Shown: piece by piece, positions 2,669 to 58,817 of the stretch | How the letters are laid out: every line of letters begins with the position of its first letter | Position numbering within the stretch: position 1 is the first letter of the stretch | Origin: a bacterium | Lineage (GTDB): Bacteria; Patescibacteriota; Minisyncoccia; Phycocordibacterales; UBA918 | Direction of reading: 5' to 3' | Assembly: GCA_043719295.1 (NCBI GenBank) | Contig: JAYSUD010000005.1 | Coordinates: 31,651-95,650 of the forward strand | Length of the DNA: 64,000 nt | Notes under the pieces: generated by a model | What the model was told of the DNA's origin: nothing | The model's database searches: none | What the model saw: only the letters and a program-made list of their open reading frames with translations | Position numbers and translations under genes: made by a program

Positions 2669-2829
2669 GTGAACAGAATATATACAACAAACCCTACAAG
2701 TAACATTGTCGGGTTTTTGTTTTAAAGTCATAAAAAAACATGTTTCCAGACTACTTGCTCGTTGGATTTTTATTGAAAAGATATTGCGATATCTTTGGAT
2801 ATATTCCTCTGTGGTCACGAGTTACTAAC

Positions 2830-3006
2830 TATAATTGTTCGCTCCGCTCCAATTCTAGTAAGTACTCTCGACCCCGACTCGACTGTTTTCTCCTCTGGGG
2901 AGCAGGAGAAAACATGTCTCCGTCCATCACATCGACCCGTAAGTGACGCAGGTCACTTACTAGAACAGAAAGCACCCCTTCTTAAGAAGGGGTGCTTTCT
3001 GTTCTG
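2830..3006 (+). ncRNA. candidate small RNA (paralog A): TATAAT promoter, conserved 5' leader, covarying hairpin, terminator
   Basis: TATAAT at 2830-2835; GTTCGCTCCGCTCCAATTC leader; hairpin GTTTTCTCCT/AGGAGAAAAC masks an SD followed by ATG at 2914; second hairpin gtaagtgac/gtcacttac; long palindromic terminator 2963-3006; paralog at 32805-32975. Confidence 0.5.
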
Positions 3007-3121
3007 TCGATGTGAGCCTTCAGCTGATAGAACTCATCAAGTTTATTGTCCCGCAACGTTATTTTTTACTAAGTAACGAGAAATATTGACGACCCTTCTC
3101 GTGCCTCTGTTGCTAAATAAA

Positions 3122-3601
3122 TTAGCTGATTTCTTTAATACTAATACATATACCAAACTCGTCAGTGGTTCCTTCAATTGAGACGTCATATGATTCAGTG
3201 TAATCAATTCTTATGGGTGTATGTGACCAAATATCAATAAGAATTTCGTTTATTTTTTTCTGTATCCTTTCATCTAAAGGATAAAAGTTAGAAATACCTT
3301 CATCTCCCAGCAGAGTCTTAAGTTGGTTATGAAAGTCTGTGAATGAACCGTTAAACATGACGGTATTTCCAAAACCTGCATGAAACTTTTTTAATTCATC
3401 AGTAATAATTTTTGGTGCCTTTGAAATTTTTGTATGTAAAGTTAAATTACAGTAGAAGTTTAAGATACTATATTTTTCGGGATGGTTTCTTAATTCAAGG
3501 ATTTTCCTGACCCTTGAAAGTATATAAACAATATCTTCTTCAGTTACAGGAATGGACTTAAGTTTTTCGAGTAATTTATCTTTTATTTCTTTTTCACCCA
3601 T
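3122..3601 (-). CDS. hypothetical protein
   Basis: 159-aa ORF; its promoter region carries the GTGACA-N4-GTGACA direct repeat (3622-3638). Confidence 0.5.
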   Translation of the reverse strand: MGEKEIKDKLLEKLKSIPVTEEDIVYILSRVRKILELRNHPEKYSILNFYCNLTLHTKISKAPKIITDELKKFHAGFGNTVMFNGSFTDFHNQLKTLLGDEGISNFYPLDERIQKKINEILIDIWSHTPIRIDYTESYDVSIEGTTDEFGICISIKEIS

Positions 3602-3999: not shown

Positions 4000-4070
4000 G
4001 TCAAAATATCTCATGTTATAATGAGGAAAATAAGTATTTAACAAAAAGAGTCGATTTATAAATTTTATAT

Positions 4071-5042
4071 ATGACTAAAGATAGCTACATAAAAATTGGT
4101 CTAGTCCTGATAATTTTGATTGGTGTTCTATTTATCTACTTTTCTAAAGATAAAATTGAACACCTTGAACCACCACTATTGAAAGCAAGTTCTGTTTACG
4201 TAGGTAAAGAAGTCACTCTTTCTGGTGTTGCGTACCCAAATTCTCGAATAGCTGTTTATGTAAATGATTCTTTTGTTGATGAGTTTCAAGTATCTGATAA
4301 GGGACAATTTGAAAATAAGATTCAGTTAAGTACCGAAGGTGAAGTAAAAATAAAAGCTAAACAGCTATTCAAAAATTTAACAAGCGATTTTAGCGATTTA
4401 CTTTCTGTTCAAGTTGATTTAACTCCTCCTGATAAAAATTCACTTAAACTTACATCTGGTATTGCCGAAAAAACTCAGGAACAATTCCTCGAAATTAAGG
4501 GAAGCGTAAACCCTGGTGAGATACTTCAAGTTGGGACGAGTAATATCAACGTCAATCCCGATGGTTCATTTGAAGATAAAATTAAATTAGTTGAAGGATT
4601 AAATACGCTCGAATTTATTATTAAAGATAAAGTAGGAAATTCAGTGGTATCAAAAAATCAACAAATTTATGTAGATTCAATAGCTCCAAAAATTGTTACA
4701 AGTAGTTTTGAGTGTAGGTATAAAGATACTGACACGCTATCAACGCAAGAGAAAGTGTGTATAGAAATAGGTGATTGGTCAGGTTACTTAGACTCTTACA
4801 ACTCGTTACCAATCGTAGGTTCTGTAACAGGACAGATTAAATCTATTAGTGTGAATGAAAAAAGTGTGGAGTGGGATGAAAATAACGAGATATACCAAAG
4901 ACTTAATTTATATCTAAGCGGTGGTATTAATAAGTATAAAGTCATAGTCGAGGATATTTCAGGAAATGTATCTTCAGCATATATTGAAACAAGTGCTGAG
5001 CGGACTCAAGACACTATAAATCTAAACATTGATGATTATTAG
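4071..5042 (+). CDS. membrane-anchored protein with Ig-like beta repeats
   Basis: N-terminal TM helix followed by repeated beta-rich ~90-aa segments. Confidence 0.45.
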   Translation: MTKDSYIKIGLVLIILIGVLFIYFSKDKIEHLEPPLLKASSVYVGKEVTLSGVAYPNSRIAVYVNDSFVDEFQVSDKGQFENKIQLSTEGEVKIKAKQLFKNLTSDFSDLLSVQVDLTPPDKNSLKLTSGIAEKTQEQFLEIKGSVNPGEILQVGTSNINVNPDGSFEDKIKLVEGLNTLEFIIKDKVGNSVVSKNQQIYVDSIAPKIVTSSFECRYKDTDTLSTQEKVCIEIGDWSGYLDSYNSLPIVGSVTGQIKSISVNEKSVEWDENNEIYQRLNLYLSGGINKYKVIVEDISGNVSSAYIETSAERTQDTINLNIDDY

Positions 5043-5165
5043 TCTTTTTACAGAGCAAGGAAGGAAATGTGACAAAAGTGACACTTTTTAGCAGTAATAG
5101 TTACACGGGTCTGTAACTATTAAAACAAAATATCTCCTATATTGATAGGTTATAATATAGGGTAT

Positions 5166-5714
5166 ATGGTGGTCAAATCTACAAAAAACAACCTCCTCAC
5201 TATAAGCTCAAAAAACTTGAGTGATTTTTTGCACATTAGAGACGAAGTTGAATCGTATCTTAAACAAACACTGAAATTCTTTCCGCTTGATGAATTGATT
5301 GATAGCTATAAAAAAGCTGTTGCAAGTGCAGAGCTAATTAATAGACCAACATTTTATATTGAACCAATGTCCTTAGTTCAGACATTTGGTCCAAATGTGG
5401 TGGTGTCTCTATGTCTAGATATTAAACATCATGAACTTTATGAGTATGACAATCACAAGCACAGTCACTGTTTCAGTATAAAGGCTGACCAACAATTTAA
5501 ACTCCTCTACAAAATTTGTGAATCGAATGATGTTTATATACCTACTTCTGAACTAATGAAAGTTGCGGGTTATCGTAGTGTCGCATCTACTTACAAAGCA
5601 ATTGAGAAAATTAATAGTGTCGGGTATCAAATTGGTCTACCAGAGAGGTTATTGATTGGTTCTGAAGGTCAAGGTTATCGAATAAATCAAAATTACACTG
5701 TTACGGTCATCTAA
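5166..5714 (+). CDS. hypothetical protein, possible winged-helix DNA-binding C-terminus
   Basis: C-terminal ...SVGYQIGLPERLLIGSEGQGYRI resembles an OmpR-type wing; GTGACA direct repeat about 80 bp upstream; track start 5142 sits inside a promoter-like AT box, so the Met at 5166 is preferred. Confidence 0.4.
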   Translation: MVVKSTKNNLLTISSKNLSDFLHIRDEVESYLKQTLKFFPLDELIDSYKKAVASAELINRPTFYIEPMSLVQTFGPNVVVSLCLDIKHHELYEYDNHKHSHCFSIKADQQFKLLYKICESNDVYIPTSELMKVAGYRSVASTYKAIEKINSVGYQIGLPERLLIGSEGQGYRINQNYTVTVI

Positions 5715-5847
5715 ACTCTAGCTGGAGTGGAAAACCTCGCAAAAAGCGAGGTTTTCTTTTGCGTGTTCATAGCTGGACTCCAGCTGGAGTTGTTTAAATT
5801 AAGGTGTCTTAACCAGACAATATAGATATACCAGTAAAAATATATCT

Positions 5848-7113
5848 ATGGAAAAACTAGCTTGGACTACAGAAAAACGAAGTGTAATTGAACTCATACC
5901 ATACGAGAAAAACCCTCGAAAAATTAGTGAATACCAACTCAATAATCTAAAGAGGAGTTTTGAGAAATTTAATTTGGTAGAAATACCAGCTGTAGATTTA
6001 GATGGGAAAATAATCGCTGGGCACCAACGCTTAAAGGTAATGAAGTTACTTGGTCGTGAGAACGAAATTATTGACGTACGTGTTCCTAATCGTATATTGA
6101 CTGATGAAGAATACGAACAGTATTTACTCACCTCAAATGCAGTTACTGGTGAGTGGGATTTTGAACTACTGAAAGAATTTGAATTTGAGTTGTTGCAAGA
6201 TATAGGTTTTGACCAAAAAGTACTCGATGACATATGGGACACAACAGAAATAACTGAAAAAGAAAAAGTTACTGATGGTGGTGATATTAGTGTAGAAATA
6301 CAGACCAAGGTTGGTGACCTTATACAGCTCGGCAACCATAGACTGATATGTGGTGACTGTACTAACCTTGGTGTACTAAAAATACTTTGTGGCGATGAGC
6401 GATTGGATATGATTGCTAGTGACCCACCATATAATATTGACCTAGATTATAACGCTGGCATTGGTGGGAATCAGTCGTACGGTGGCAATGTAATTGATAA
6501 ACGAACCGATGAAGAGTATATAGATTTCCTACGCTCTAGTATGAAAGCGGCATTGTCAGTTGCAAAGCCAGATACACATGTTTTCTATTGGAATACTGAA
6601 CAGCACATCTGGATTTTACAGACACTATACCGAGAGCTTGGTATTGAAAACAAGAGGGTTTGTCTATGGATTAAAAATGGACACAATCCAACACCAGGTG
6701 TTGCTTTTAACAAATGCTATGAACCGTGTGTATATGGTACTAGGGGTAAGCCATTCCTGTCAGAGCATAATGAATATACTGAGATATTAAATACTGATAT
6801 AGAGAATGGAAATAAAGGCTTTAGCACCATAAATGTATGGCTTGAAAAACGTCTACCCTCAGCTGAGTATGAACACGCCACTGCCAAACCTGCTTCACTG
6901 CACGAAAGAGCAATTAAACGCTGTACACGAGCAAATGACATCATACTAGATTCATTTGGTGGATCTGGTAGCACACTCATTGCCGCTGAACAACTACATC
7001 GAAGAGCATTTCTGGTAGAGCTTGAACCTAGATTTTGTGACCTTATTTGCCAAAACTTTGAATCACTCACAGGCAAGAAACGTAAGTTAATCGGTAATTA
7101 TGCGAAAGTCTAA
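5848..7113 (+). CDS. ParB-like nuclease domain fused to an N6-adenine/N4-cytosine DNA methyltransferase (phage-type orphan MTase)
   Basis: N-terminal ParB/Srx-like region; DPPY motif (IASDPPYNIDLD); C-terminal FGGSGST AdoMet motif (beta-class order). Confidence 0.75.
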   Translation: MEKLAWTTEKRSVIELIPYEKNPRKISEYQLNNLKRSFEKFNLVEIPAVDLDGKIIAGHQRLKVMKLLGRENEIIDVRVPNRILTDEEYEQYLLTSNAVTGEWDFELLKEFEFELLQDIGFDQKVLDDIWDTTEITEKEKVTDGGDISVEIQTKVGDLIQLGNHRLICGDCTNLGVLKILCGDERLDMIASDPPYNIDLDYNAGIGGNQSYGGNVIDKRTDEEYIDFLRSSMKAALSVAKPDTHVFYWNTEQHIWILQTLYRELGIENKRVCLWIKNGHNPTPGVAFNKCYEPCVYGTRGKPFLSEHNEYTEILNTDIENGNKGFSTINVWLEKRLPSAEYEHATAKPASLHERAIKRCTRANDIILDSFGGSGSTLIAAEQLHRRAFLVELEPRFCDLICQNFESLTGKKRKLIGNYAKV

Positions 7114-7498
7114 AAAATTACTTAAGCAAATTATTGCTGAGCTTGAAAAAATGCCAAACAAGTCATATGTCTGTCAGAAGTTGGGTATCTCACGTCAAAC
7201 TCTTTACCGTTGGATAGAGGATGACCTTGATTTTTCTGATGGGGTTGAATTGGCTATTCGTATAGGCAACGAATCAATGAGTGACTTAGCTGAAAGTAAA
7301 CTTGTTGAAATGGTTAAAGAAGGTGATTTTAGGGCAGTCAGATATTTGCTTGATAACAAACACAAAGACTATAAACGACCTAGACTTCCAAATTGGCATC
7401 AGCAGGAAGACAAAAGACCGTCAGACAACAAAATTATGTTTGTAGATTTTGGGGGCGGTTCAGATCTAGAAGATGATCCTGGTTTTTCTATTTCATAG
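7100..7498 (+). CDS. phage terminase small-subunit-like HTH protein
   Basis: KLGISRQTLYRWIEDD HTH, then ...LVEMVKEGDFRAVRYLLDNKHKDYK as in the TerS family; overlaps the MTase stop. Confidence 0.55.
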   Translation: MRKSKKLLKQIIAELEKMPNKSYVCQKLGISRQTLYRWIEDDLDFSDGVELAIRIGNESMSDLAESKLVEMVKEGDFRAVRYLLDNKHKDYKRPRLPNWHQQEDKRPSDNKIMFVDFGGGSDLEDDPGFSIS

Positions 7499-7538
7499 AA
7501 AATTGAGGGATCTATCTTGATTGCAAAACTAAATTTGA

Positions 7539-8114
7539 CTAACGGACAATGTCTATAATAACCTCGCCACCAGTCCAAAGACCTCCATTAAACTGAAATT
7601 GTAGTCCAGTCGAATCTTTTGGAATCTCAAATCCTACCCACCCCGTCCGCTTACTATTAGCAATGATGGCTCCGTCAAGACGATTACTCATATTTTCCAT
7701 TGATTTTCCTGTAACTGCTACTTGATAGCTGTTACCTTCAGCGTCTCTGATAAACATCTGACCCAGAGTGGTGACATACTGTTGTGATGAATCTTTATTC
7801 TCAATAGTAATATTTAAATCAATCCATTCATTACCTTCACTTGGCTTATTATATTGACCAGCTTTTGAAAATGTAACTTCATTTACTGTAATAACTGATT
7901 TACCCAACTGAACACTTTCTCCAACTTTATAAGTAGTTCGTTTTTCTTCTTTAGTTTCACTTTCACTTATTTCACTAGTACCGTTTGTATTAACTGCTTG
8001 TGGTTTAGGTGTACTGTCTCCTGATCCGATAATGATAAGTACGATAATTGTGACCGCCCACACCCACTTTCTTTTATAAAACGGCTTCTTAGCTACTGGT
8101 ATATTTGTTTCCAT
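7539..8114 (-). CDS. DUF4352-family membrane-anchored protein
   Basis: TM helix then a beta domain with YKVGESVQLGKSVITVNEV... typical of DUF4352; track ORF (to 8219) runs upstream into a repeat region, internal Met at 8114 preferred. Confidence 0.55.
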   Translation of the reverse strand: METNIPVAKKPFYKRKWVWAVTIIVLIIIGSGDSTPKPQAVNTNGTSEISESETKEEKRTTYKVGESVQLGKSVITVNEVTFSKAGQYNKPSEGNEWIDLNITIENKDSSQQYVTTLGQMFIRDAEGNSYQVAVTGKSMENMSNRLDGAIIANSKRTGWVGFEIPKDSTGLQFQFNGGLWTGGEVIIDIVR

Positions 8115-8453
8115 AATTAATGCTTGATAGGACTTAATAATTCGTGGCGGATATACAAAAAGCCCGCCACGGGTAGAGGGCGAACCCTCTCGTACCAGTT
8201 TCCCGATACGGCCTATCAAGCAACCCCATGACGGGTTTTTTATGCTTGATAGGACTTTTCACCATGCTCCAGATATTCTCTGAAGTTTAGGCTACTTCTA
8301 AATATTCGATTCTACGAGAACAATAATAGCAGATTTTACTGCCTATTTCACTCTATCGCATGTTTGTTCTTTTGCTAAGGCTCAAACACGAGTATGTGAT
8401 GAATATGAAGTTCTGCATAGACTATGCATCATAAATGGTTCTGTCATTAATTA

Positions 8454-9776
8454 ATGATGGAAACGAACGCAATTGGGCGTATACCCAGCAATATCTCAAT
8501 CACCGAGACCCGTATCAGATATTGCCTATATGCTCGAAAATCGACTGAATCAGACGAACAGCAAGCATTATCTATAGATTCTCAAGTAAAGGAAATGGGT
8601 GCTATTGCAGAGCGTTTAAACCTCAATGTTGTCAGTATTAAAAGAGAGTCTCATTCAGCAAAGGAATCGGGACAACGTCCTGTTTTCAAAGAACTACTTG
8701 AAGAAGTCAGAAAAGGAACGTATGACGGTATTCTCACATGGGCGGCAGACCGACTGAGTAGAAATGCTGGGGATCTAGGTTCGCTCGTAGATTTAATGGA
8801 TCAGAAGCGGCTTATCCATATTCAGACCTATGGACAGACCTTTTCTAATTCGCCAAACGAAAAGTTTCTCTTGATGATTCTGTGTTCACAAGCAAAACTT
8901 GAGAACGACAACAAAAGTCAAAACGTGAAGCGAGGGTTACGGGCGAGAGTAGAAATGGGTTTATGGCCGTGTAGACCGCCAACTGGGTACAGTAAGTATA
9001 AACGAATGGATCAAAAGTGTGAGTCAGTTATAGATATCGAACGTGCACCGATCATTAAACAAATGTTTGAGAAAGTTGGTAACGACGGCTGGAGTGGAAG
9101 AAAGCTCTATCATTGGCTAAAAGACGATATTAATTTCAAAACTGAGAATAATATGCACTTAAGTCTTGGTAACTTATATCGAATACTTTCAAACCATTTC
9201 TACTATGGGAGGTTTGAATTCCCAAAACAATCTGGACTTTGGTACAACGGAGCGCATGAACCTCTTATTTCCAAAGAGCTTTTTGATTTAGTTCAGTCCC
9301 GTATTAAAAGTCAGATACTTGAGCCACGTTCTGCTCATAAAGAATTTGCGTTTACAAAAATCATGTCCTGTGGACTGTGTGGTTCTGGTATTACCGCAGA
9401 CGAAAAATTTAAGCATCAAATGAACGGTAATACTCACCGTTATGTCTACTATAAATGTACCCGTACCAAAGACAGTAACTGCTCATGTGGTTTTATCAAT
9501 GAAGATGATCTAATTATTCAACTTCAAGACCTAATGAATGACCTTGATATACAAATAGTTCCGATGAGAGAGCAGATCGCTAACGATTTGAGGAAATTCA
9601 AGAAGTTTGAACAAATGATACTCGGTACTAAAACACCAGTAGTAGTGAAAGATATTGATATTCGTAATTACGCCAAATTTATTCTTCAAGAGGGTGATAT
9701 TGAAGAAAAACGTGTTTTTCTAGGGTGCTTAAAAAATAAAATAATCTTAGAAAATAAAAGAATATGTCTAGCATAG
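8454..9776 (+). mobile_element. large serine recombinase (integrase)
   Basis: N-terminal resolvase catalytic domain (YARKSTESDEQ...DSQ...RLSRN), recombinase domain and C-terminal Cys-rich zinc ribbon (CGLCGS...YYKC). Confidence 0.8.
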
Positions 9777-9814
9777 GGTTCTACTTTTACTCTTCGTAAT
9801 AAATTTTGTCGTAT

Positions 9815-11695
9815 TCATATGTCGAGTACATGAATATCATTCGAAGGGAAGAAACCTTTTGTTTCAATTGCAGATCGCATCATTTCAGTATCTTCTGTAA
9901 ATATTACGACAGCCAAATCTTGGACGGCGCGCGAACAGCAAACATAGAATAATCTACGAGTCCTGTCCACCACAGAATCTCTGCCATTTTGAATATTATC
10001 AATATCCGTTTCAGAAAGCGGGACCATATCGAAATATTTACCATAGGAAAAAGATGTCGTCGTACTTTCTTCATCATCGACTACTACCAAAACTCTATCA
10101 AACTCCGCCCCCTTAATCCCTTGTTGTGTTGCAAAGGGTGATTGTTCTTCAATATAAGTCCTATAGCTAAGCACTTGATTTGCACTACAGTTAAGAAATC
10201 TAAGCACTGAGTTTTCAGGGGCGTTTTCGGTAAACGATTCCCTAGAAATAAATTGTGAAAGTGGTTCAAAAAAACGTTCATCTAAAGCTAGAAGATTGTT
10301 CTTTTGAACAAAGTTAATCACATCACCAATTAGGATTTGACTTCTATCTGCAAACATTTCTCCTAGAGCAGTAAGGTCATCATTTAATGAAGCTAACTCA
10401 GTTGCAAGATTATTTGAAAAAATATAATCAGGATCAAGCCGAGGACAACTATTTCTCAGTATAGACATTACCTTGAAATCATCATTATCCGTTCTAGCTT
10501 GTAATAGCGGAATTATATACTGAATGAATGGTCTAACGACCCAAGCTGTCCCATCAATAAGTCCGCTCTTTAAGCTTTCTGGAGATTTGTCATTCAATGC
10601 ACTATAGATGTCAGGGAAACCAAGTCTGGAAGCTGCGATTCTGTGAACTACTACGAGCATTCTGACATCTCCTTCCTTTGTGTCACTCAACCAGAGTGGG
10701 TCATTATTCTGTTGAGCTAACCATGCTCTAACGCTCGTCAATCCCTCGGTTCGTTTATCTGAAGGTAAAATGAACGCTCTTGCCGTGCCTTGGATGGATG
10801 TTTGTACGCCATCAATCTCAATGGTTTTACCGCGAATTTGATGCAATCCATCACCCTCAGCTCTGATATTATTTATAACATTAAGCACATTGACTGGACA
10901 TCTAAAGTTTTCTGGTTTTTGAATTGTTAGCCACCCAACCTCTTCTGGTATCTCACCAATTCCATCCATATAAATCTTTTGCATTGGATCTCCAAAAAAA
11001 CCTAAGCAAAACCCAGTAGACGCACTTGAGGTTATTTTTTTTAAGGCTTTGATAAAATCAGGTATAGTGTCCTGACTTTCATCTACAAAGATGACAGGGA
11101 AGCGTTGCGCTATAACTTTTTGCAAAATGCCATGACTTGATATCAAGTCGGTGCCAATTTTCAGTATGTCACTATGCCCCAAGATTCCGTTTGCATAATC
11201 ACTGCCAGTACCATACCTAAAGCTTTTAACTATTTTAACAAGTTCAACTTGTTCTCTGTACCTCTCAATATTTAAACGCTCCTTTAATTTTGTGGCTTCG
11301 TGTGTCCTTGGTTTGATAATTTTTTCTTCAGATTCCAATATTTTTTCATCTATCCTTTGAAGAACCCAAGTCCTCAAGTCATCCTGAAACGGTCTAATAA
11401 CAATCCATAAGAAACTGTGAATTGTTGATACGTGAAAAAGTGTATCATGACTTACGTCACCATAAATTTCTTTCACAGCAACATCTGTATATGTGATACA
11501 AGCTATTTGCTGTGCTTGTCTACGCAGATGATCACCTCTCATTTCTGATAAATAATTTAAAGCCTTAACCAACGATGTTGTTTTACCAGAACCTGCCCCA
11601 GCTGTCATGAGAAAATGACACAACCCATCGTCATTTAAACGGGAGTGAAGTTCTATATCGGCAGGAGTGTCGGGGTTATCAATACGGCTTGTCAT
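9815..11695 (-). CDS. UvrD/Rep-like superfamily-1 helicase (GajB-like)
   Basis: Walker A TAGAGSGKTTSL, DE/Q motifs; start overlaps the stop of the upstream OLD-family gene (operon). Confidence 0.7.
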   Translation of the reverse strand: MTSRIDNPDTPADIELHSRLNDDGLCHFLMTAGAGSGKTTSLVKALNYLSEMRGDHLRRQAQQIACITYTDVAVKEIYGDVSHDTLFHVSTIHSFLWIVIRPFQDDLRTWVLQRIDEKILESEEKIIKPRTHEATKLKERLNIERYREQVELVKIVKSFRYGTGSDYANGILGHSDILKIGTDLISSHGILQKVIAQRFPVIFVDESQDTIPDFIKALKKITSSASTGFCLGFFGDPMQKIYMDGIGEIPEEVGWLTIQKPENFRCPVNVLNVINNIRAEGDGLHQIRGKTIEIDGVQTSIQGTARAFILPSDKRTEGLTSVRAWLAQQNNDPLWLSDTKEGDVRMLVVVHRIAASRLGFPDIYSALNDKSPESLKSGLIDGTAWVVRPFIQYIIPLLQARTDNDDFKVMSILRNSCPRLDPDYIFSNNLATELASLNDDLTALGEMFADRSQILIGDVINFVQKNNLLALDERFFEPLSQFISRESFTENAPENSVLRFLNCSANQVLSYRTYIEEQSPFATQQGIKGAEFDRVLVVVDDEESTTTSFSYGKYFDMVPLSETDIDNIQNGRDSVVDRTRRLFYVCCSRAVQDLAVVIFTEDTEMMRSAIETKGFFPSNDIHVLDI

Positions 11696-11699
11696 GTCG

Positions 11700-13961
11700 C
11701 TAAGTTACTTGCACACTTATAATAGTCTCACTCAGTACTTCAGTATCTCCGGTGCCTGAGGAGTTCTCTGTGGTAGGGGTAATTTGCATTTCCAACCACT
11801 TCAAACCTTCTGAAATATAATCTGGAACAATCCAGGCATCCTTATCTTTTGTTAGAAGTGCTAAAGCGAAATCGGTTTTTTTGAAGTTCTTGCCGCTGAT
11901 TCGTTTATATAAGCGATCCGTTATAACTTCGAGTGTTGGTGAATCGCTAGACTTTACTCTTAACTTAAGTTCTTTATTAGCCATTTCTTGACTCCAAGAT
12001 AAATTTTGATATGCAAAGGCTTCTTCTAGTGTGCGTCCAGTGCGTTCAATATTCTTAGTATCACGAATGATATTTATTTGCGTTTGATAACATACACGTA
12101 CTGGAGCACATCCTGTGTCACGAACTTGCTCTTTTTCTTCAGAAGTTGACTGCATAAGGTCAATGATATTTCTTTTTTTAGGCAACCACTGAATTAAAGT
12201 CTGATTTGAAGTGACAGCATTTTTTGTTTCGACAGAGCAGCTGCTACCTCTTTTTTTCTCACCCTCCTCGACCTCGTCAATATCTTCAAATTCATCTAAG
12301 TCAGTGTCTTCGTCTGTTACATTTTGTTCTACATCAGGGTCAGATCCAATGACACTATCAAGGTCAGTGATAACAAGAGTCGTTATCCCTAAAAAATCTA
12401 TGAGTGACTGAAAACGGAAACTAAAAGCTCCGCCAATTTCTAATACACTTAAATAAGTTTGTTTAAGAAGCGGTGCACTTTTCTCGATCATCAGTGGCGT
12501 TAATAATCTCTCAACATTTCCCTCAACCAGGACTGCTGCATCAGCAAAGAAGAGATCGCAGTGAGTTAACTTTAGATATCTTTCCAAAAAATCTCGCGTT
12601 GTCTCTGGTGTCTTCGTATAGTATTCAGACAGATTAAGTACAGAAGTATACTGAGAGGCTCCGCTATCTTCTCGCCGGAAATATCTAATAGGTTGAAAAC
12701 CTCTCTCGTAAAGAATGTGAGATGAATGGGTAGTTATAACTATTTGACTAGAATAAGCATCTGAGTCAGGCCCGTTAATGGACAATATGTCCAATATTTT
12801 GTTTACAAAAACCTGTTGCAACTGGTTATGTAAGTGTGCCTCTGGTTCCTCGATAAAAACAAGGTGTAAAGGCGGTCGTTTCACTTCAATATCCATCCAC
12901 TGGTTATGTAAGTCCAGTAATTCCACAACCATATAAATTAAGTTTTTAAAACCTAAGCCATTGTATTTGTCTGGAAGCGTCACGTCGTCACCTAAAGCGT
13001 AATGGACTTGTGTGCCGTCCTGAACATTCATTAATGTTGCTGGATTAAGATCTGAAAGTATCTTGATACTTGGGTTTTTCAACCCAGGATATCCTAGCTT
13101 AGAGAGCTTTTTCATTGTCGACGAGAACACATCTTGTAAATGAACGTTCATCAATCTCTCAGATTCAAAAAGAGCTTTCATGGCCTCATAATCATGACCT
13201 CGTTTCTCTAGATTGCGCTTATAAAATCTACTTAAGTGTCGAGAAAGCTCTTCTGATCTATTGCCGCTAGAAGTGTCTGATAGATGACGTTGTGCTTGCA
13301 GAAAGTCAATTTTGATGAGGGAAGAGAGGATATCTCTACCTGATCTGTTTTTACCAGCAGAGCCTTTGTCTGAAGTGATCTCTAATGGTTCATAAGTACC
13401 AATTTCGGATAGACTTATATCAAACTTTGATCTGTCGAGGACATAATACCTAAATTCGTATTCCCGCTTTAGCTCTTTAGTAAGGAAATCTTTTAGTGTC
13501 TTTGGAAACAAAACTACGGAATCTTCTTCAGCAGTTTGTTGTCCATTTTGAGCTATAGATTGTGCTTCTCTGAACCTAGATAGAGTTAACTGTGAGTCCG
13601 TCGGTGAGAAAGATACTCTTATCCCAACCTGATTTTCTCTCCAAGCAAGACTTGGTAACAAATCAATTACTCGATGTAAGTCAGAATCAGTAACACCAAA
13701 CCAGAAATCTATTGAGATTTCGGGAAGTTCAGAGTCAGCAATACCATTGGCAAAGGCCTCAATATTCGCCCAAGTAGATGCATTAAAATCATGTAGACTA
13801 AGTTTTTCACGAGATGCAGAAGCAAAGAGTTGCAAAGCCTGAACCACAGATGTCTTACCGCTATTGTTTGACCCGACGAAGATAGATATATCTTTTTCCA
13901 AATCTATAACGACGTCTTTTAGGCGTCTGAAGTTCTTTATGTGTAAGGAGTCTAATTTCAT
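11700..13961 (-). CDS. OLD-family ATP-dependent endonuclease, AAA_15/21 ATPase + Toprim (GajA-like)
   Basis: N-terminal MKLDSLHIKNFRRLKD...GSNNSGKTS; Walker B/D-loop LHLVFIEEPEAHLH; Toprim LVEGNVE and ITDLDS motifs. Confidence 0.75.
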   Translation of the reverse strand: MKLDSLHIKNFRRLKDVVIDLEKDISIFVGSNNSGKTSVVQALQLFASASREKLSLHDFNASTWANIEAFANGIADSELPEISIDFWFGVTDSDLHRVIDLLPSLAWRENQVGIRVSFSPTDSQLTLSRFREAQSIAQNGQQTAEEDSVVLFPKTLKDFLTKELKREYEFRYYVLDRSKFDISLSEIGTYEPLEITSDKGSAGKNRSGRDILSSLIKIDFLQAQRHLSDTSSGNRSEELSRHLSRFYKRNLEKRGHDYEAMKALFESERLMNVHLQDVFSSTMKKLSKLGYPGLKNPSIKILSDLNPATLMNVQDGTQVHYALGDDVTLPDKYNGLGFKNLIYMVVELLDLHNQWMDIEVKRPPLHLVFIEEPEAHLHNQLQQVFVNKILDILSINGPDSDAYSSQIVITTHSSHILYERGFQPIRYFRREDSGASQYTSVLNLSEYYTKTPETTRDFLERYLKLTHCDLFFADAAVLVEGNVERLLTPLMIEKSAPLLKQTYLSVLEIGGAFSFRFQSLIDFLGITTLVITDLDSVIGSDPDVEQNVTDEDTDLDEFEDIDEVEEGEKKRGSSCSVETKNAVTSNQTLIQWLPKKRNIIDLMQSTSEEKEQVRDTGCAPVRVCYQTQINIIRDTKNIERTGRTLEEAFAYQNLSWSQEMANKELKLRVKSSDSPTLEVITDRLYKRISGKNFKKTDFALALLTKDKDAWIVPDYISEGLKWLEMQITPTTENSSGTGDTEVLSETIISVQVT

Positions 13962-14069
13962 GCAGTTAAGCTAAGAGTATCACTAATTCAAATAGGTTGA
14001 AATACATACCTAATACAAAAATAACCTCAAATGAGGCTATTTTTGTATGCTTCTCGTGCTAGCACGAAT

Positions 14070-14143
14070 TGGTGATCCCACGGAGAATCGAACTCCGATT
14101 TCCAGGATGAAAACCTGATGTCCTAACCGTTAGACGATGGGAC
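14070..14143 (-). tRNA. tRNA-Glu (UUC), CCA encoded
   Basis: cloverleaf GGTCCCA...anticodon loop TTTTCAT...TGGGATCACCA read on the minus strand. Confidence 0.85.
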
Positions 14144-14256
14144 CAAACGTTATGTATAACGCGAGCAAAATCATACCAAAAAACACAGAAAAAGCTAGTC
14201 TTGTACACAAAAGGGCAATCTCGGAAGATTGCCCCCTATCACCGTTTTACTTGCTC

Positions 14257-22806: not shown

Positions 22807-22879
22807 GCGCGATTAGCTCAGCTGGTAGAGCGCCCGCATGACATGCGGTAGGTCACAGGTTCAAGTCCTGTATCGCGCA
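22807..22879 (+). tRNA. tRNA-Val (GAC)
   Basis: GCGCGAT acceptor, GCTCAGCTGGTAGAGC D-arm, anticodon loop ATGACAT, TTCAAGT T-loop. Confidence 0.85.
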
Positions 22880-23126
22880 CTTAGAAAATAAATAACTCAG
22901 TGTGTATACACTGAGTTATTTATTTTCTGCGCGATACAGGACTTGAAAGGCGGAGTCGGGGACCCTTTGGGCCGACGAGCCGGGGTCGAGAACACTTAGT
23001 AGATTTGGAGTCGAAGACGAACAAATATACTTAATGATTCGTGACCGAGCCCTGTATCAAATGCCTTAACTCGTACAGCACGCAAAAAAAAGATGACCAT
23101 GCTTTGTTTACTGTATACTATCTTCA

Positions 23127-31046: not shown

Positions 31047-31432
31047 GTATGTATATTATGTCATATTTATTGATTTTGAATATGCTTCACAACCTGACAT
31101 GAAAACGAGGATGTCTTGCTTTCTAAACGAAAAATACTCCAATCGATTGGAGTATTTTTGCTGACGTATTGCGTGATAAGAGTCGGACTTGGTCGCTAGT
31201 TGTGACAACGAACATTAATTCAGGAGCCAGACTTGCACACGAATCACTAAGTATATTATTTCGCTACGCTCATAATCTACTAAGTGTTCGCGACCCCGTC
31301 TCACTCGTCTTGGCATTAGGAAAAGCCAAGACATCGTTGCGACCTTCAAGTCTGGACGCAAGGTGCGCAGGCACCTTACTCTCTGAGCACCACATATACA
31401 AAAACCGCTCCTGAGAGCGGTTTTTGTATATG

Positions 31433-31509
31433 TGGTGCTCAGAGCCAGACTTGAACCGGCGACCCTTCCCTCTTCAGGGGAATGCTCTACCAACTGAGCT
31501 ATCTGAGCA
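31433..31509 (-). tRNA. tRNA-Phe (GAA), CCA encoded
   Basis: GCTCAGATAGCTCAGTTGGTAGAGC...anticodon loop CTGAAGA...TTCAAGT...TCTGAGCACCA on the minus strand; track ORFs 31215-31535 and 31169-31414 are artefacts of this tRNA. Confidence 0.85.
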
Positions 31510-31739
31510 TATGGTATGACTCTCCGCTTATTCAAAAAAGCTAAGTGAGCTGTGACATTGTACCTGTTTTTATCTTTTTTTCAACACACTCTATAAGGCT
31601 TATGAAAATGAGTGAGAAGTGATAGGGAATCACTTCGCAAGAGGTTACCTGCTCTTTTGAAAAAAAGAGCGATAACCTGAACAGTTTCTGTAAGAAACAA
31701 AAGAGGAAACGAAGAAGTGTGCCATTTTCATAAGCCTTA

Positions 31740-32069
31740 CTACTGTCCTCGCGAAGCCTTGATTGCTTCAAGAGTCTGTGAAAACTGCTTCCAACCAGGG
31801 ATTTCTTGCATACCGACACTAAACACCTCGTATGAAGAGCCTAGAGCCTCAAAATACGGTTCTAGGATGTAGAAGTAGAGTGCAAACGGTAGACCAATGA
31901 GGAATAAGTACCAAACAATTCTGAACCAAAAACCCCATACTGCGTTGCGGTGCAGTTTTTTTAACAATAGATTATTTTCCTTAAGAAGCTCCGTATTCTT
32001 CTCAAGAAGGTATTTTATTTCAATAGTTGTATCATCCCCTTGCATGATAGTAAGTATAGCAGACAACAT
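31740..32069 (-). CDS. small 2-TM membrane protein (hypothetical)
   Basis: 109 aa with hydrophobic stretch WGFWFRIVWYLFLIGLPFALYFYIL. Confidence 0.45.
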   Translation of the reverse strand: MLSAILTIMQGDDTTIEIKYLLEKNTELLKENNLLLKKLHRNAVWGFWFRIVWYLFLIGLPFALYFYILEPYFEALGSSYEVFSVGMQEIPGWKQFSQTLEAIKASRGQ

Positions 32070-32781: not shown

Positions 32782-32804
32782 CTGGTTGGGGTCAAGTTTC
32801 TAGC

Positions 32805-32975
32805 TATAATTGTTCGCTTCGCTCCAATTCAAGCAACAACTTCCTCCCCGGACTCACCTGTTTCTGCACTAGGAAGAGCAGAAACATGGCTCCGTCTCAC
32901 ATACAGGCACGAAAGCAAAGCAGTTTGCTTTCTAAACGAAAAATCCACCATTCTTAAGAATGGTGGATTTTTCTT
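32805..32975 (+). ncRNA. candidate small RNA (paralog B of 2830-3006)
   Basis: TATAAT 32805-32810; GTTCGCTTCGCTCCAATTC leader; covarying hairpin GTTTCTGC/GCAGAAAC; CATGGCTCCGTC; hairpin gaaagca/tgctttc; terminator aaaaatccaccattcttaagaatggtggattttt. Confidence 0.5.
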
Positions 32976-32985
32976 TACCTATATG

Positions 32986-33057
32986 TGCCCTCGCTAGGAG
33001 TCGAACCTAGATCCCCTCGTTAGGAGTGAGGAGTTCTATCCATTGAACTACGAAGGC
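32986..33057 (-). tRNA. tRNA-Arg (CCU)
   Basis: GCCTTCG acceptor (one G.U), anticodon loop CTCCTAA, T-arm CTAGG-TTCGACT-CCTAG, minus strand. Confidence 0.75.
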
Positions 33058-36817: not shown

Positions 36818-36874
36818 AAAGTGTGCTTAAAAACTTCTACTACTTCGTTACTGCACGACTTACAGTCGCCGTTC

Positions 36875-36943
36875 AGGTTGTATGATATTTTTCCAAAATA
36901 TCGACAACCTTTTGAATAGTGACATTAAGTCACTATTCAACCT
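36875..36943 (+). repeat. double-hairpin repeat R1, copy 2 (upstream of lepA)
   Basis: caggttgtatgatatttttccaaaatatcgacaacc + tgaatagtgacattaagtcactattca. Confidence 0.7.
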
Positions 36944-37140
36944 TGTATTAAAAGCTTTTAAACACACTTTATAATTTGGAGATTTACAATTGAACATTAT
37001 GCCGGGGACAAAGTCTCTAAACTGACCTCATAAAGATCAGGCTACGAGGCGTAAGCGAAAAATGGAAGAAGCGGTACATCGGTACCGTGCCTTACATTTT
37101 ATTGCAGAGCTATGAAGTAGCATGGACTTTTGTGGTCAGT

Positions 37141-41318: not shown

Positions 41319-41470
41319 AAAAAACAACACGGTTACCCCTCTTATAATGTATCTATAGGATACCATGAAGCGAGTCTGCACTATATGCAAAATCAAGTAA
41401 AAGTGGGAGTACAAAACAACAAAAAAACCCCAAAAGGGATTTTTTGTACGCGATAAGCCGGGTTCTGTCC

Positions 41471-41523
41471 CAGTGAAATACAAAGGCAAAGCCTTTGTCT
41501 GCGCAAAGCGCATTTCACCGGGG
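41471..41523 (+). repeat. R2 compound palindrome, copy a
   Basis: cagtgaaat-ACAAAGGCaaaGCCTTTGT-cTGCGCaaaGCGCA-atttcaccgg. Confidence 0.6.
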
Positions 41524-41774
41524 ATGATCATATATCTGTGAACTACATTACTGTAGAACTATAGCGGCTCTCCAAGTGAAGTATAAAAAACAAAGTTTTT
41601 TATCAAGCGCAAGCGCACTTCACCCGGCACGGCCTTGCACGCAAGTAAGGATTTAGCCGTTTCACCTTGTACGTTGCCGTACAAGCTCATCAACACTTTC
41701 ATAGTCCCTACGCATATGGCACACTTCTTCGTTGTAGTGGAAACAAATAATTTGTCTTCATTACATGAACGGTT

Positions 41775-41843
41775 CAGGTTGTAAGATATTTTTACAAAAT
41801 ATCGACAACCTTTTGAATAATGACATCGAGTCATTATTCAACC
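41775..41843 (+). repeat. double-hairpin repeat R1, copy 3
   Basis: caggttgtaagatatttttacaaaatatcgacaacc + tgaataatgacatcgagtcattattca (compensatory changes relative to copy 2). Confidence 0.7.
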
Positions 41844-42056
41844 TCGAATTGCACTCATCTGCGTAGGGACTATTTCATGTTGATGTCTCTTTCTTTCGAT
41901 TAAGACGTCTCTGCTCGCACCTCTTGGAATGAAATATAGAAGCGAAGCTTTTATATTTCATTCCACGATGGGAATTACCCACTACCTTTTTTGATTCTCT
42001 ACGCACCTTTCATGAAGAAAAATGAGTTTCAAAAAAACGTGCCCGGACTTTCCTCC

Positions 42057-42108
42057 CGGTGAAATATAAAGGCAAAGCCTTTATTAGCGCAAAGCGCATT
42101 TCACTGGG
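42057..42108 (+). repeat. R2 compound palindrome, copy b
   Basis: cggtgaaat-ATAAAGGCaaaGCCTTTAT-tAGCGCaaaGCGCA-tttcactgg; covaries with copy a. Confidence 0.6.
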
Positions 42109-42146
42109 CGATCATCTGCGTTTTAATATTATACAACAAAAACTCG

Positions 42147-44685: not shown

Positions 44686-44901
44686 AACATGCCCGAAATT
44701 CTCATCAACTGCGTTACTTCATAAAAAATATCAGTCACCGTACTCCACGTACGGCTTCTTCTATTTTTTACTTGCGCCTTGTTGCTAAAAATTTCTGACA
44801 CGTTCTAATCATCTCGAGCATCTTGGAAATACTAAGAGTCACTTGCAAGTAGACATAGAAAAAGCCGGTGCTTTCGCACCGGCTTTTTCTATTCACAAAG
44901 C

Positions 44902-45099
44902 TTACGCTCGTGAAACATTTCCTGCAGCTGGTCCCTTAGGGCCATCTACAATATCAAATGTTACAGCATCTCCCTCTCGTAGGTCGTTGAATTCAACGCC
45001 GTTAAGATCTTTAGCGTGGAAGAAAACATCTTTCTGTCCATCGTCTGGAGTAATAAAACCGAAACCTCGGTCTGTAACACGTGCAATTTTACCTGTCAT
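44902..45099 (-). CDS. cspA: cold-shock protein
   Basis: GKIARVTDRGFGFI RNP1 and VFFH RNP2; hairpin terminator 44860-44895. Confidence 0.85.
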   Translation of the reverse strand: MTGKIARVTDRGFGFITPDDGQKDVFFHAKDLNGVEFNDLREGDAVTFDIVDGPKGPAAGNVSRA

Positions 45100-45271
45100 C
45101 TTGTTTTTTGTTTATTTACTTATATACAAAGTGCTGCTGAGCCTGATCTACTTTTTGAGCGATTCTCAAGTGGAGCTTTGCTTTGTTGCCAAGAATTATA
45201 GCATACCTATACCAAAAAAGCAACAAATTATTTCACTAAATGGGCCCTTAAACAAGGCTCTGCTCCTTGTT

Positions 45272-46372
45272 CTAAAATATCCATTTTTGCAACTTCCATC
45301 CATTCCCATGTGAAAGTAAACCGAGATACGATTGGACCACAGCATCTTTGTATTCTGATTCTTTGAGCTTTCGTTCCATCCGGTTCCTGCTTGTTGTACG
45401 AAGCACTCTATGGTGCGGAAAATGTACCCACCCAAGAAAATCAACTCCTGAGGCGTGGGTAGAAATGGAAACTTTGTGTGGATGCAACTCAAGTCTTAAT
45501 GTAACCTCCAGAAATAGTACGATATATCGTACTATTTCTGCAAGGTATTTTTTATCCTGTGAGAGAAAAACAAAGTCATCGGCATAACGGATGTACTGTT
45601 TTACACTTAGTGTATGTTTTACAAACTGGTCAAATTCGTTCATGTATATATTTACGAGTAATTGTGACGTGAGATTGCCTAAAGGTAACCCTTTAGACGT
45701 TGAGCAAGGACTAACTTTGTTCACGACATCTTCATCAGTATTTGTTTTAAAGCTTTTAATTACATCTCCAAGAAGGGATAGGATATCAGTGTCAACGATA
45801 TGTCGTTTTAAAATCTCCATCAAAATTTCCTGATCAATACTTGCGAAAAACTTTCTGATGTCACATTTCAATACCCAACAAGTTTTAGTATAGTTCTTTG
45901 ACACTTTGTGTGCAAAGTTTCTAAACTGATTAATTGCTTTATGGGTTCCCTTTCCATTTCTGCACGAGTAAGAATCGTGAATAAATGTTGTGTCAAAATA
46001 TGGATACAGTTTACGGTAGAGTGCATGGTGAAGTAGTCGGTCACGTACACTTGCTTTATGAATATCACGTGGTTTTGGGTCGTTGATTTTAAATGCTTCG
46101 TATCCACCATGGCCGTACGTCTTTGCTTTTAAGTCGTTGTGAAGCGAAAGAATATTGCTCATCAGATTATATTGAAACTCTTGTACATCAGCTTTCTTTC
46201 GTTTACCTCGTACAAACTCCCTCCATGCAAGAAGTAAATTTTCTACAGAAATGATATCCTCATAGGTATGAGTGAAAAGAGTTTTGACAGTAAAGTCACC
46301 CCCCCCCGACGCAATCTCCTTCCCATTTTGGAGCGTATCAAAGAGTCCTATTTGTTTTGGCATAATTGCCAT
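45272..46372 (-). CDS. diversity-generating retroelement reverse transcriptase
   Basis: RT motifs 0-7 including YADD (YIRYADDFVFL) and the DGR-specific [L/I]GxxxSQ motif (LPLGNLTSQLLVNIYMNEF) in place of QGxxxSP; 366 aa without a maturase domain. Confidence 0.8.
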   Translation of the reverse strand: MAIMPKQIGLFDTLQNGKEIASGGGDFTVKTLFTHTYEDIISVENLLLAWREFVRGKRKKADVQEFQYNLMSNILSLHNDLKAKTYGHGGYEAFKINDPKPRDIHKASVRDRLLHHALYRKLYPYFDTTFIHDSYSCRNGKGTHKAINQFRNFAHKVSKNYTKTCWVLKCDIRKFFASIDQEILMEILKRHIVDTDILSLLGDVIKSFKTNTDEDVVNKVSPCSTSKGLPLGNLTSQLLVNIYMNEFDQFVKHTLSVKQYIRYADDFVFLSQDKKYLAEIVRYIVLFLEVTLRLELHPHKVSISTHASGVDFLGWVHFPHHRVLRTTSRNRMERKLKESEYKDAVVQSYLGLLSHGNGWKLQKWIF

Positions 46373-46666: not shown

Positions 46667-46692
46667 TGAAGAAGTGTTTGAAATGAAGCAAG

Positions 46693-46821
46693 TTGCCAGA
46701 AGCGGTGAGACGTTGTTCGCATTGCGATCATTGTCCAGCCAGTTGTAGTTCCAGGTCCATGAGCCGTCGTCGTTCCGATATAGATACAGGAAGTAGGAAT
46801 TGCCATCAGGGTTCCGCAGAA
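46693..46821 (-). repeat. DGR template repeat (TR), 129 bp
   Basis: aligns over 129 bp with VR 47150-47278; 19 mismatches, 18 of them TR-adenine (coding strand) to any base; N/AAC-rich reading frame; the track ORF 46619-46867 is this non-coding TR. Confidence 0.85.
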
Positions 46822-58779: not shown

Positions 58780-58817
58780 CAGGTTGATGGTATTTTTTGC
58801 AAAATACCTATCAACCT
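58780..58817 (+). repeat. R1 repeat, partial copy 4 (hairpin 1 only)
   Basis: caggttgatggtattttttgcaaaatacctatcaacct. Confidence 0.5.

Follow-up and report, generated by a model that had tools for sequence, protein, structure and literature searches.

A 64-kb window, by which we mean the whole 64,000-nt stretch of contig JAYSUD010000005.1 analyzed here, carries six tRNA genes, several of which are followed by long hairpins built from an inverted copy of the 3′ end of the gene. Five of the genes were called by ARAGORN. The sixth, tRNA-Thr(GGT) at 63679–63955 on the minus strand, bears a 203-nt intron (63717–63919) after position 37 and was missed by default ARAGORN and Rfam. The inverted repeats that the original prediction had reported behind tRNA-Val, tRNA-Phe, and tRNA-Gln were all found in place, and in each case a terminator-type hairpin is followed by a perfect antisense copy (19–24 nt) of the tRNA's own 3′ end. 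These hairpins form part of a larger element of ~170–260 nt that codes for no protein, in which the antisense copy leads into a structured core and the core into a second, direct copy of the gene end. The core, this second copy, and the hosts other than tRNA (transfer-messenger RNA [tmRNA], rplB, and others) had been overlooked in the original prediction.

At tRNA-Phe the two 30-nt arms (31381–31410 and 31415–31444) are 100% complementary and enclose the encoded CCA within the stem, and at tRNA-Gln the 31-nt arms (54693–54723 and 54728–54758) are 97% complementary. The 25-nt interruption previously recorded in the Phe inverted copy turned out to be a small hairpin (m in Table 1), beyond which the copy resumes. 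At tRNA-Val the direct copy on the far side of the core has decayed and shares an exact 8-mer with the tRNA at 23051–23058. The earlier count of three tRNAs with this pattern holds for those three and is incomplete, as tRNA-Arg exhibits a short version of 10 nt, formed by nine Watson–Crick pairs and one G·U, which makes four of the six. Downstream of tRNA-Glu and tRNA-Thr(GGT), plain hairpins were present and no element was detected. Repeat finding revealed a conserved stretch of ~110 nt behind the Val, Phe, and Arg inverted copies and the same stretch at 2813–2925, in minus-strand reading, where it accompanies no tRNA. A covariance model (R1) identified exactly four copies in the window, namely the orphan and those of Val, Phe, and Arg, each of which folds into two hairpins; the Val core (22948–23046) scored 84.5 bits (E = 8e-19). 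The tRNA-Gln element has the same architecture, but its core belongs to a different family (core2), as found by comparison with loci L191, L198, L206, L215, and others.

Table 1. Coordinates of the tRNA-associated elements and of the orphan element in the window
Feature	Position	Strand	Evidence or remark
tRNA-Val(GAC)	22807–22880	+	ARAGORN; Rfam tRNA 65.8 bits
Val X(up) ttcaagtcctgtatcgcgca	22860–22879	+	last 20 nt, T-loop to discriminator
Val h	22880–22928	+	sequence; 49-nt A/T-rich terminator-type palindrome between X(up) and X′
Val X′ gcgcgatacaggacttgaa	22929–22947	+	perfect inverted copy of tRNA-Val positions 54–72
Val core, P2 and hairpin 1	22948–22981	+	fold; alignment A2
Val core, P3 hairpin	22982–23046	+	fold; alignment A2
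Val X(down), decayed direct copy cgagccctgtatc	23046–23058	+	11/13 identical to tRNA caagtcctgtatc
tRNA-Phe(GAA)	31433–31508	-	CCA encoded
Phe X(up)	31433–31455	-	
Phe h	31393–31432	-	repeat finding; minimum free energy fold
Phe X′a tggtgctcagag	31381–31392	-	repeat finding; minimum free energy fold
Phe m	31356–31380	-	CUGC loop; minimum free energy fold
Phe X′t ccagacttgaa	31345–31355	-	minimum free energy fold
Phe core, P2 and hairpin 1	31298–31344	-	core: R1 84.2 bits; fold z = -4.5
Phe core, P3	31236–31297	-	as above
Phe X(down), truncated direct copy caagtctggctc	31224–31235	-	12/12 identical to tRNA positions 56–67
tRNA-Arg(CCT)	32985–33057	-	
Arg element, medium class	32788–32988	-	R1 69.0 bits
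Arg X(up)	32978–32988	-	
Arg h	32933–32977	-	
Arg m	32911–32932	-	
Arg X′	32898–32907	-	
Arg core, P2 and hairpin 1	32851–32897	-	
Arg core, P3	32788–32850	-	
tRNA-Gln(TTG)	54746–54817	-	T-loop TCCGAAT
Gln X(up)	54746–54766	-	
Gln h	54706–54745	-	
Gln X′a gctgggatacagg	54693–54705	-	
Gln m	54667–54692	-	
Gln X′t cggattcggaa	54656–54666	-	
Gln core2, first hairpin	54620–54655	-	GGTTG...CGACAACC
Gln core2, second hairpin	54594–54619	-	UGUAA loop
Gln X(down), direct copy ccctgtatcccagc	54580–54593	-	
Gln ancestral trailer	54549–54579	-	TCGAG, then terminator-like hairpin (position)
Orphan core1 element	2813–3015	-	no tRNA; R1 97.9 bits; ~110 nt downstream of open reading frame 3122–3601
Orphan X(up)	3006–3015	-	
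Orphan h	2962–3005	-	22-bp perfect palindrome
Orphan m	2939–2961	-	
Orphan X′	2927–2936	-	
Orphan core, P2 and hairpin 1	2876–2925	-	
Orphan core, P3	2813–2875	-	

Read from 5′ to 3′, the element consists of X(up), the hairpin h, X′, the core, X(down), and the ancestral trailer, where X comprises the last 10–30 nt of the gene together with a few trailer bases and X′ is its exact antisense copy. In the long class, X spans the region from the T-loop (T54–C56) to the discriminator or the CCA, and X′ is usually split exactly between its acceptor and T parts by the small CUGC-loop hairpin m. In the short and medium classes, X covers only ~4 tRNA bases plus trailer. Elements of the full version are inserted at position 55/56, within the T-loop, and those of the short version at about position 71/72. 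The hairpin h, as read by eye, is composed of a run of A, a stem (mostly GC-rich, A/T-rich in the Val element of the window) and a run of T, and one h type ends with a conserved GTAG. A consensus terminator scan left the h hairpins uncalled because it counted the T run into the extended stem. The terminator-like spacer that the original prediction had placed between the repeats is present, although it had not been recognized as part of the element. X(up) and X(down) are identical over 12–25 nt in ~27 of 69 elements; the direct repeats span 4–25 nt in general and ~65 nt at L088, where X, trailer, and h are all duplicated. X′ exhibits 1.35 mismatches per 20 nt on average, against 3.2 per 18 nt for X(down). 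In effect, the interrupted gene end is rebuilt by the duplication, so that the tRNA stays intact and gains a terminator-type hairpin of its own.

In core1, the core of the Val, Phe, Arg, and orphan elements, P2 is a helix of 3 bp that encloses a conserved internal loop (G[C/G]AG / YGAG) and a hairpin 1, which is variable in length and can host other modules; P3 is a long hairpin of irregular shape with GA-[stem-GAA]-GAA at its apex. Core2, core3, and divergent P3 variants occupy the same position in other elements. In an alignment of 116 core sequences (A2), the 19 pairs of P3 were formed in 98.2% of cells, and 11 of them displayed double compensatory changes. Compensatory cells in P3 numbered 259, in comparison with 95 ± 11 in shuffled alignments; the observed values lay beyond those of all 500 shuffles, and the covariation signal was lost when the partners were slid. 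The P2 triplets vary while remaining fully complementary (GCC/GGC 15, GGC/GCC 13, AGC/GCT 11, GAC/GTC 9, ACC/GGT 8, GTC/GAC 5). One G·U pair of the core is kept in 114 of the 116 sequences, and variation runs from GC to GU and almost never to A·C, a bias from which we read that the structure is formed on the strand having the sense of the upstream gene. Searching the elements with Rfam 15, at the gathering threshold and at E ≤ 5, returned no family, only spurious sub-threshold hairpins of the microRNA type, and in the window the matches above threshold were restricted to tRNA and LOOT. A class C group II intron, a six-domain ribozyme with domain V that inserts behind terminators and usually encodes a reverse transcriptase, was considered and rejected: no Rfam intron match appeared at E ≤ 5, and the core amounts to ~110 nt with two hairpins.

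Relatives of the element were collected in one scan of species-representative genomes with the pattern GGGGTCGNGA-N(22-30)-CGAAMWAWTATA, which retrieved at least 115 loci, each represented by an 8-kb stretch chosen for holding at least one element. Among the matches listed, the titled records belong to Patescibacteria, also known as the candidate phyla radiation (CPR), with Paceibacteria, Kaiserbacteria, Nomurabacteria, Yonathbacteria, Wolfebacteria, and Saccharibacteria represented, and the remainder are unclassified metagenome-assembled genomes (MAGs); the exceptions among these matches are L084, with one chance match, and L046. The latter (JBAWVE010000197.1) is a 3.9-kb contig labeled Parachlamydiaceae that carries a typical core1 element and is probably a mis-binned CPR contig. 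Proteins of the window are 69–77% identical to proteins of these CPR loci, with shared gene order, which places the source of the window among CPR bacteria of the Parcubacteria type; the window's allele of a flanking DHH gene recurs in only one contig, of 1.7 kb. As for copies per genome, the 64-kb window holds four core1 elements and one of core2 type (at tRNA-Gln), and at least seven loci come from the MAG CAYGLK01. The core pattern had zero matches in 2.9 million viral contigs. The occurrence of at least 115 loci in many CPR MAGs bears out the suggestion that the pattern is systematic and extends beyond the window.

The 147 tRNAs of the CPR loci and the window form a sample biased toward occupancy, because each locus was picked for at least one element. 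In 77 of the 147, a stretch of 10 nt or more from the tRNA's own 3′ end recurs as an exact inverted copy within 200 nt downstream, whereas the same test on upstream flanks gave 0 of 145. The longest inverted match averaged 11.2 nt, against 5.6 nt for shuffled tails. Core1 is missing at 59 of the tRNAs, yet 24 of these are followed by an inverted copy of their own end, joined to other core variants. A chance origin of the inverted copies is excluded by these counts. The other mundane explanation, that the hairpins are simply long intrinsic terminators or fortuitous palindromes, can draw on the fact that each hairpin has a GC-rich stem between A and T runs; set against it are the downstream/upstream asymmetry, arms that reach 20 nt into the tRNA, and a conserved core that is always attached. 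We regard it as next to inconceivable, in agreement with the original prediction, which had held that the pattern is not a standard terminator.

The association with gene ends is strictly oriented. Of 101 evaluable core1 copies among the matches listed, 76 are located 77–357 nt downstream of a tRNA on the same strand, and none has a tRNA on the opposite strand within 600 nt. The tRNA hosts cover at least 18 amino-acid identities. Additionally, tmRNA was confirmed as host in L024 (1817–2229, minus strand) and L093 (8–399, plus strand), where X′ is complementary to the tmRNA 3′ end, and it is probably the host in L015, L034, and L101 as well. Core1 directly follows rplB, encoding ribosomal protein L2, in L002, L019, L065, and L110; in L019 (3876–5483, minus strand), its terminator-type hairpin notwithstanding, it separates rplB from rpsS within the operon of ribosomal proteins. 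Other protein-coding genes precede the orphan copy of the window and a few more. Clustering of the open reading frames (ORFs) over the 115 loci listed yielded housekeeping families only, with no enriched neighbor that could represent a partner protein.

Comparison of orthologous loci, which the original prediction had proposed, revealed an insertion. In a scan of metagenomes for the tRNA-Gln end, the site proved to be empty in L136 and filled in L215 and L171; these loci have the tRNA and the downstream trailer in common, and the 152 nt by which they differ comprise h, X′ in degenerate form, a module of core2, and a single copy of X (20 nt). From this alignment, the element is shown to be an insertion accompanied by a 20-nt duplication that starts in the T-loop. 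The insert itself measures 150–260 nt and is free of ORFs. Insertion can be serial, with the newer element placed between the tRNA and the older one (L131 in comparison with L165; L206 with L048), and tandem units were found in L018, L078, L085, L090, and L097. At the syntenic CTP-synthase/tRNA-Gln locus, the core differs among three genomes: the window has core2 there, L075 has core1, and L056 has a core3-like module. Behind X(down), the window and the syntenic L075 share the ancestral trailer, TCGAG with its terminator, and so does L191.

One hairpin-1 subtype occurs at tRNA-Phe (L029), tRNA-Glu (L054), and tRNA-Leu (L077), and each time X′ and X(down) match the local tRNA; more generally, the nearest neighbor of a core shares its tRNA isotype in just 19 of 69 cases. 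The unusual T-loop of the window's tRNA-Gln, TCCGAAT (a T55C variant), is mirrored in its X′t (GGATTCGGA), and the related L191 combines TTCGAAT with GGGATTCGAA. In the rplB set, X′ tracks the differing last codons of four genomes. These correspondences show that X′ is derived from the local gene and not carried between sites, so that what moves is the core, and the antisense segment comes from the host. Afterwards, X′ would be either held matched by selection or kept matched by conversion. Three other sources of X′ were considered and rejected. Inheritance from a donor tRNA is contradicted by 8-mer matches at chance level, with one suggestive case (L215, with a Ser-like X′). Descent from the 5′ half of a degenerate second tRNA is contradicted by exact complementarity through T-loop, discriminator, CCA, and trailer, and also by X′ turning G·U pairs of the T-stem into Watson–Crick pairs. 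Copying by the reverse transcriptase of the diversity-generating retroelement (DGR) in the window is contradicted by the lack of an adenine-specific mismatch signature in X′ or X(down).

These findings bear on the idea that the repeats are ordinary attL/attR remnants left by integrase-mediated integration into tRNA genes. As with integrative elements that use tyrosine-integrase attachment (att) sites reaching from the T-loop to the 3′ end, a flanking direct repeat keeps the gene intact, tmRNA is among the targets, and successive insertions accumulate in tandem beside the gene. Unlike those elements, the CPR insert is only ~200 nt long and has no integrase; its repeats are made from the local gene instead of being carried along; one core family serves nearly all tRNA identities as well as protein genes, one core subtype being found at several identities with locally matching repeats; and an inverted copy and a conserved, covarying RNA-like structure are added, which, together with the copies after rplB and other protein genes, integration leaves unexplained. 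No recombinase is enriched nearby, the viral contigs lack the core pattern, and no intact integrase-bearing element was found between the repeats in the relatives. Ordinary att scars were accordingly rejected and appear very improbable. The original prediction had mentioned the scar left behind by an element that targets tRNAs and becomes duplicated in inverted orientation; this comes close to the evidence, except that the scar is not of the ordinary att kind. The two other roles named there, that of a processing or stability signal and that of a recombination substrate, are conceivable for the hairpins.

Taken together, we favor, with a probability of about one half, the reading that the hairpins are the left arms of small, protein-less, non-autonomous mobile hairpin-module elements that colonize gene 3′ ends, predominantly those of tRNAs, in CPR/Patescibacteria, and whose X′ is produced by fold-back copying. 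In the mechanism that we infer, a core would land at a new site, and DNA or cDNA synthesis would then fold back at the strong hairpins h and core: having copied a hairpin, the nascent strand would fold on itself and copy the preceding segment (S) in reverse. The product would be S-h-S′-core-S, and repetition would generate the tandem arrays and the ~65-nt duplication at L088. The branched hairpins (h and m; P2 and P3) parted by an alternating segment are reminiscent of rolling-hairpin replicons such as parvovirus and adeno-associated virus (AAV) with their T-shaped terminal hairpins, since S-h-S′-core-S is the pattern that fold-back priming yields. The likeness is one of pattern only: the CPR elements are chromosomal, have a 10–30-nt piece of host gene in place of a genome, and show neither flip/flop of the core nor a Rep protein.

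Composite core2 modules situated elsewhere in the window show a pattern that supports this mechanism. They lie at 31580–31745 (plus strand), 36850–37000 (minus), and 58760–58860 (minus), none of them beside a tRNA 3′ end, and follow the order small hairpin, GCAAGA, GGTTG...CAACC hairpin, TGAAC, CUGUAAG-loop hairpin, and ACGAAGAAGTGTGCC. Each is closed by a different local inverted repeat of 13–20 bp, and so is a further module inside the RNase P RNA gene, which suggests that inverted duplication of the flank is a general hallmark of these modules. The RNase P RNA gene (~41440–42110, minus strand, ~670 nt) has its P4 motifs GGAGGAAAGTCCGGGC and ACAGAACCCGGCTTA ~600 nt apart and scores 40.6 bits in Rfam against a gathering score of 100 because of insertions. 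One of these insertions (41760–41870) consists of the very composite module that forms the core at tRNA-Gln, and a Y-shaped repeat is found at both ends of the gene (41468–41522 and 42054–42108).

A derivative of a single-stranded-DNA transposon, of the IS200/IS605 kind or that of repetitive extragenic palindromes and their associated tyrosine transposases (REP-RAYT), would account for the structures differently: a Y1 HUH transposase encoded elsewhere would act on hairpins of one strand, and X′ would act as a lengthened internal guide, whose pairing with the left flank would fix where cleavage or insertion takes place. The strand-specific structure with conserved mismatches fits this proposal, as do the mosaic modules, comparable with those of bacterial interspersed mosaic elements (BIMEs), and the GTAG that ends one h type. 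In the short class, whose copies follow ...CACA, this left flank pairs with an internal TGTG at the base of P2, the sequence at the right end being GTGAC|CACA, an arrangement that has the topology of the guide/cleavage-site pairing of IS608. As in IS200/IS605 elements and their palindrome-associated (PATE) derivatives, an internal sequence at a hairpin foot pairs with the left flank. Nevertheless, the pairing of the CPR element extends over 10–30 nt and is gene-specific, whereas that of IS200/IS605 is fixed and involves 4–5 nt. The guides would need rewriting at each new gene. Moreover, the insert lies between direct duplications, 4 to ~65 nt in length, and IS200/IS605 elements make none. Y1 HUH/RAYT, TnpA, and TnpB proteins were absent from the clustered ORFs of 116 loci, no genome-wide search for them having been made. 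On balance we consider this derivation unlikely.

The predicted behavior of the transcripts must also be taken into account. Since h is made up like an intrinsic terminator that works in both directions, the majority of transcripts should stop there and yield ordinary pre-tRNAs. No promoter-like site was found inside the elements, and with the terminator-type hairpin ahead of it the core would be reached only by read-through. Folding of such read-through RNA indicated that the T and acceptor stems of the tRNA itself are much less stable than the helix of X(up) with X′. Minimum free energy folds paired the 5′ acceptor strand of the tRNA with X(down) in 15 of the 15 elements with a full X(down), plus the Gln element of the window. 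In read-through RNA, X′ would zip up X(up) and the tRNA body would pair with X(down), giving a cloverleaf that bears the whole element as a T-loop insertion and that could serve as a scaffold for tRNA-processing enzymes to trim and protect.

The serious alternative, our main rival explanation, is that the element is a host-functional RNA domain of primary transcripts, carried in the 3′ trailer of tRNA, tmRNA, and some mRNAs, whose closing helix must pair with the upstream gene end, and which would have arisen by rare duplication followed by selection. Its role might be in 3′-end processing, termination or insulation, stabilization, or as a tRNA-scaffolded noncoding RNA. The deep conservation of P2 and P3, with covariation and a sense-strand G·U pair, the strict co-orientation with the host gene, the high occupancy (at least 77 of 147 sampled tRNAs, four of six in the window), and the scaffold fold predicted in 15 of 15 cases all point in this direction. 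So do the compensatory X(up):X′ changes at orthologous sites (the rplB set, and the window in comparison with L191), an X′ kept at least as well as X(down), and borders that track tRNA architecture. Noncoding RNAs expressed together with tRNAs, such as plant dicistronic tRNA-snoRNA transcripts, small RNAs derived from 3′ external transcribed spacers, and engineered tRNA scaffolds, likewise place a co-oriented structured RNA directly downstream, and the predicted read-through fold would set the modules in a tRNA-like frame as they do. In the CPR element, however, a terminator-type hairpin parts tRNA and core, the frame comes from duplication of the tRNA 3′ half together with an antisense copy, and transcription would depend on read-through. 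The tandem arrays, the orphan and decayed copies, and the exchange of cores at a single syntenic site look selfish; two of the six window tRNAs and many elsewhere have no element; and point mutation cannot yield perfect complementarity of 20–30 nt at dozens of genes. We give host function of this kind a fair probability, although a distinctly smaller one than the mobile element.

Several observations weigh against the mobile-element reading that we prefer, or against its fold-back step. No trans-acting enzyme was identified, and no neighboring gene was enriched in the 115 loci listed. Fold-back copying leaves unexplained why m lies at the exact 65/66 border and why X′ frequently stops at T54; element borders that follow tRNA architecture hint that the template or the product was folded like a tRNA. 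The hairpin h is sometimes new and not copied from the local terminator (L215 in comparison with L136). Mismatches between X and X′ (G·U 15 against A·C 8, and 1 against 6) reveal no RNA-strand bias. P2, P3, and X(up):X′ are kept at orthologous sites of diverged genomes (L012/L098 and the rplB set), a conservation that suggests purifying selection and is equally compatible with host function and with a selfish element. Finally, X(down) is often decayed, for example in the Val and Phe elements of the window, and the tRNA-scaffold fold is for this reason not a general requirement.

Other known systems resemble the element in part. In common with MITEs (miniature inverted-repeat transposable elements) and REP/BIME mosaics, exemplified by Correia elements and the BIMEs of E. 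coli, it is short, noncoding, multicopy, and hairpin-forming, and it shares with the mosaics the interchangeable modules, the location at gene 3′ ends near terminators, and the tandem arrays. Unlike MITEs, it has no terminal inverted repeats common to all copies, as the flanking repeats are locus-specific copies of the host gene, and the length of the duplication is not fixed (4 to ~65 nt); in contrast to all of these, it is strictly oriented to the host gene and its core sequence is conserved across the superphylum. The exact complement of the 3′-terminal 18–23 nt of a tRNA, with the CCA included in the window's tRNA-Phe, recalls the primer-binding sites of long-terminal-repeat retroelements and T-box leaders, from which the element differs in that the complementarity runs into the unprocessed trailer and is also found at rplB and other non-tRNA genes. 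Pairing with mature tRNA in the manner of a primer-binding site or a T-box was rejected on these grounds: X holds trailer bases (as in the L018 repeat unit GACAGCGTAAA) and non-tRNA hosts exist, so the pairing partner is the adjacent gene or its primary transcript.

The window comprises further features of note. The LOOT RNA (RF03000, 89.6 bits; 8175–8293, minus strand) is encoded directly upstream of a large serine recombinase (8454–9776, plus strand) with Resolvase, Recombinase, and Zn_ribbon_recom domains, and the two may constitute an RNA–recombinase pairing. The recombinase is included in a stretch of low GC content (0.33–0.38) from ~4000 to 14144, which ends at tRNA-Glu and also carries an N6/N4 DNA methylase (5848–7113), a UvrD-like helicase (9815–11695), and an AAA_15 + OLD-TOPRIM gene (11700–13961); the last two form a Gabija-like pair, and the stretch is probably an integrated defense island. 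The DGR (45272–47278, minus strand) encodes its reverse transcriptase at 45272–46372 and has a template repeat at 46680–46821 and a variable repeat at 47137–47278, and at 18 of their 25 differences an A of the template stands opposite G, T, or C of the variable repeat. Rfam gave a weak "cspA" match at 44857–45206, which may represent a DGR-associated RNA. At 59022–62126 (minus strand) lies a gene for a 1034-residue beta-helix (NosD-like) protein with several linker tracts encoded by 12-nt repeats (GGTGTTGGTGTT, plus strand).

The literature searched, including the TIGR-Tas paper and the 224-motif paper, contains no description of this element. It has kin in gene-end-targeting mobile elements and mosaic hairpin repeats, and we consider its combination of target-templated sense and antisense copies of a host gene end, a conserved covarying core, and a CPR-wide distribution to be unprecedented; with considerable probability it constitutes a separate, new class. 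Somewhat tentatively, and at less than even odds, we propose that it represents either an unrecognized class of target-templated, mobile, RNA-structured elements that home, throughout the radiation, to the best-conserved sequence context on offer, namely T-loop and 3′ end of the genes for tRNA and tmRNA, restore the gene end, incorporate an antisense copy of it, and employ the tRNA body and the displaced 3′ half as scaffold for their own RNA, or a CPR-wide RNA system at most tRNA 3′ ends with a role in tRNA biogenesis. In practice, these elements will disturb the annotation of tRNA 3′ ends, the prediction of terminators, and the assembly of MAGs, and the core model offers a specific marker of CPR contigs. 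CPR genomes are tiny and have little room for junk, yet more than half of the tRNAs in loci selected for the element carry this structured sequence of ~200 nt. If selfish, it would exemplify a new way to live in essential genes, with neither splicing nor an att site and with the gene end copied both ways, and it could explain other locally closed hairpin modules in stable RNAs of CPR bacteria, such as the RNase P RNA. If functional, it would point to an unknown step of tRNA expression in a large part of bacterial diversity.

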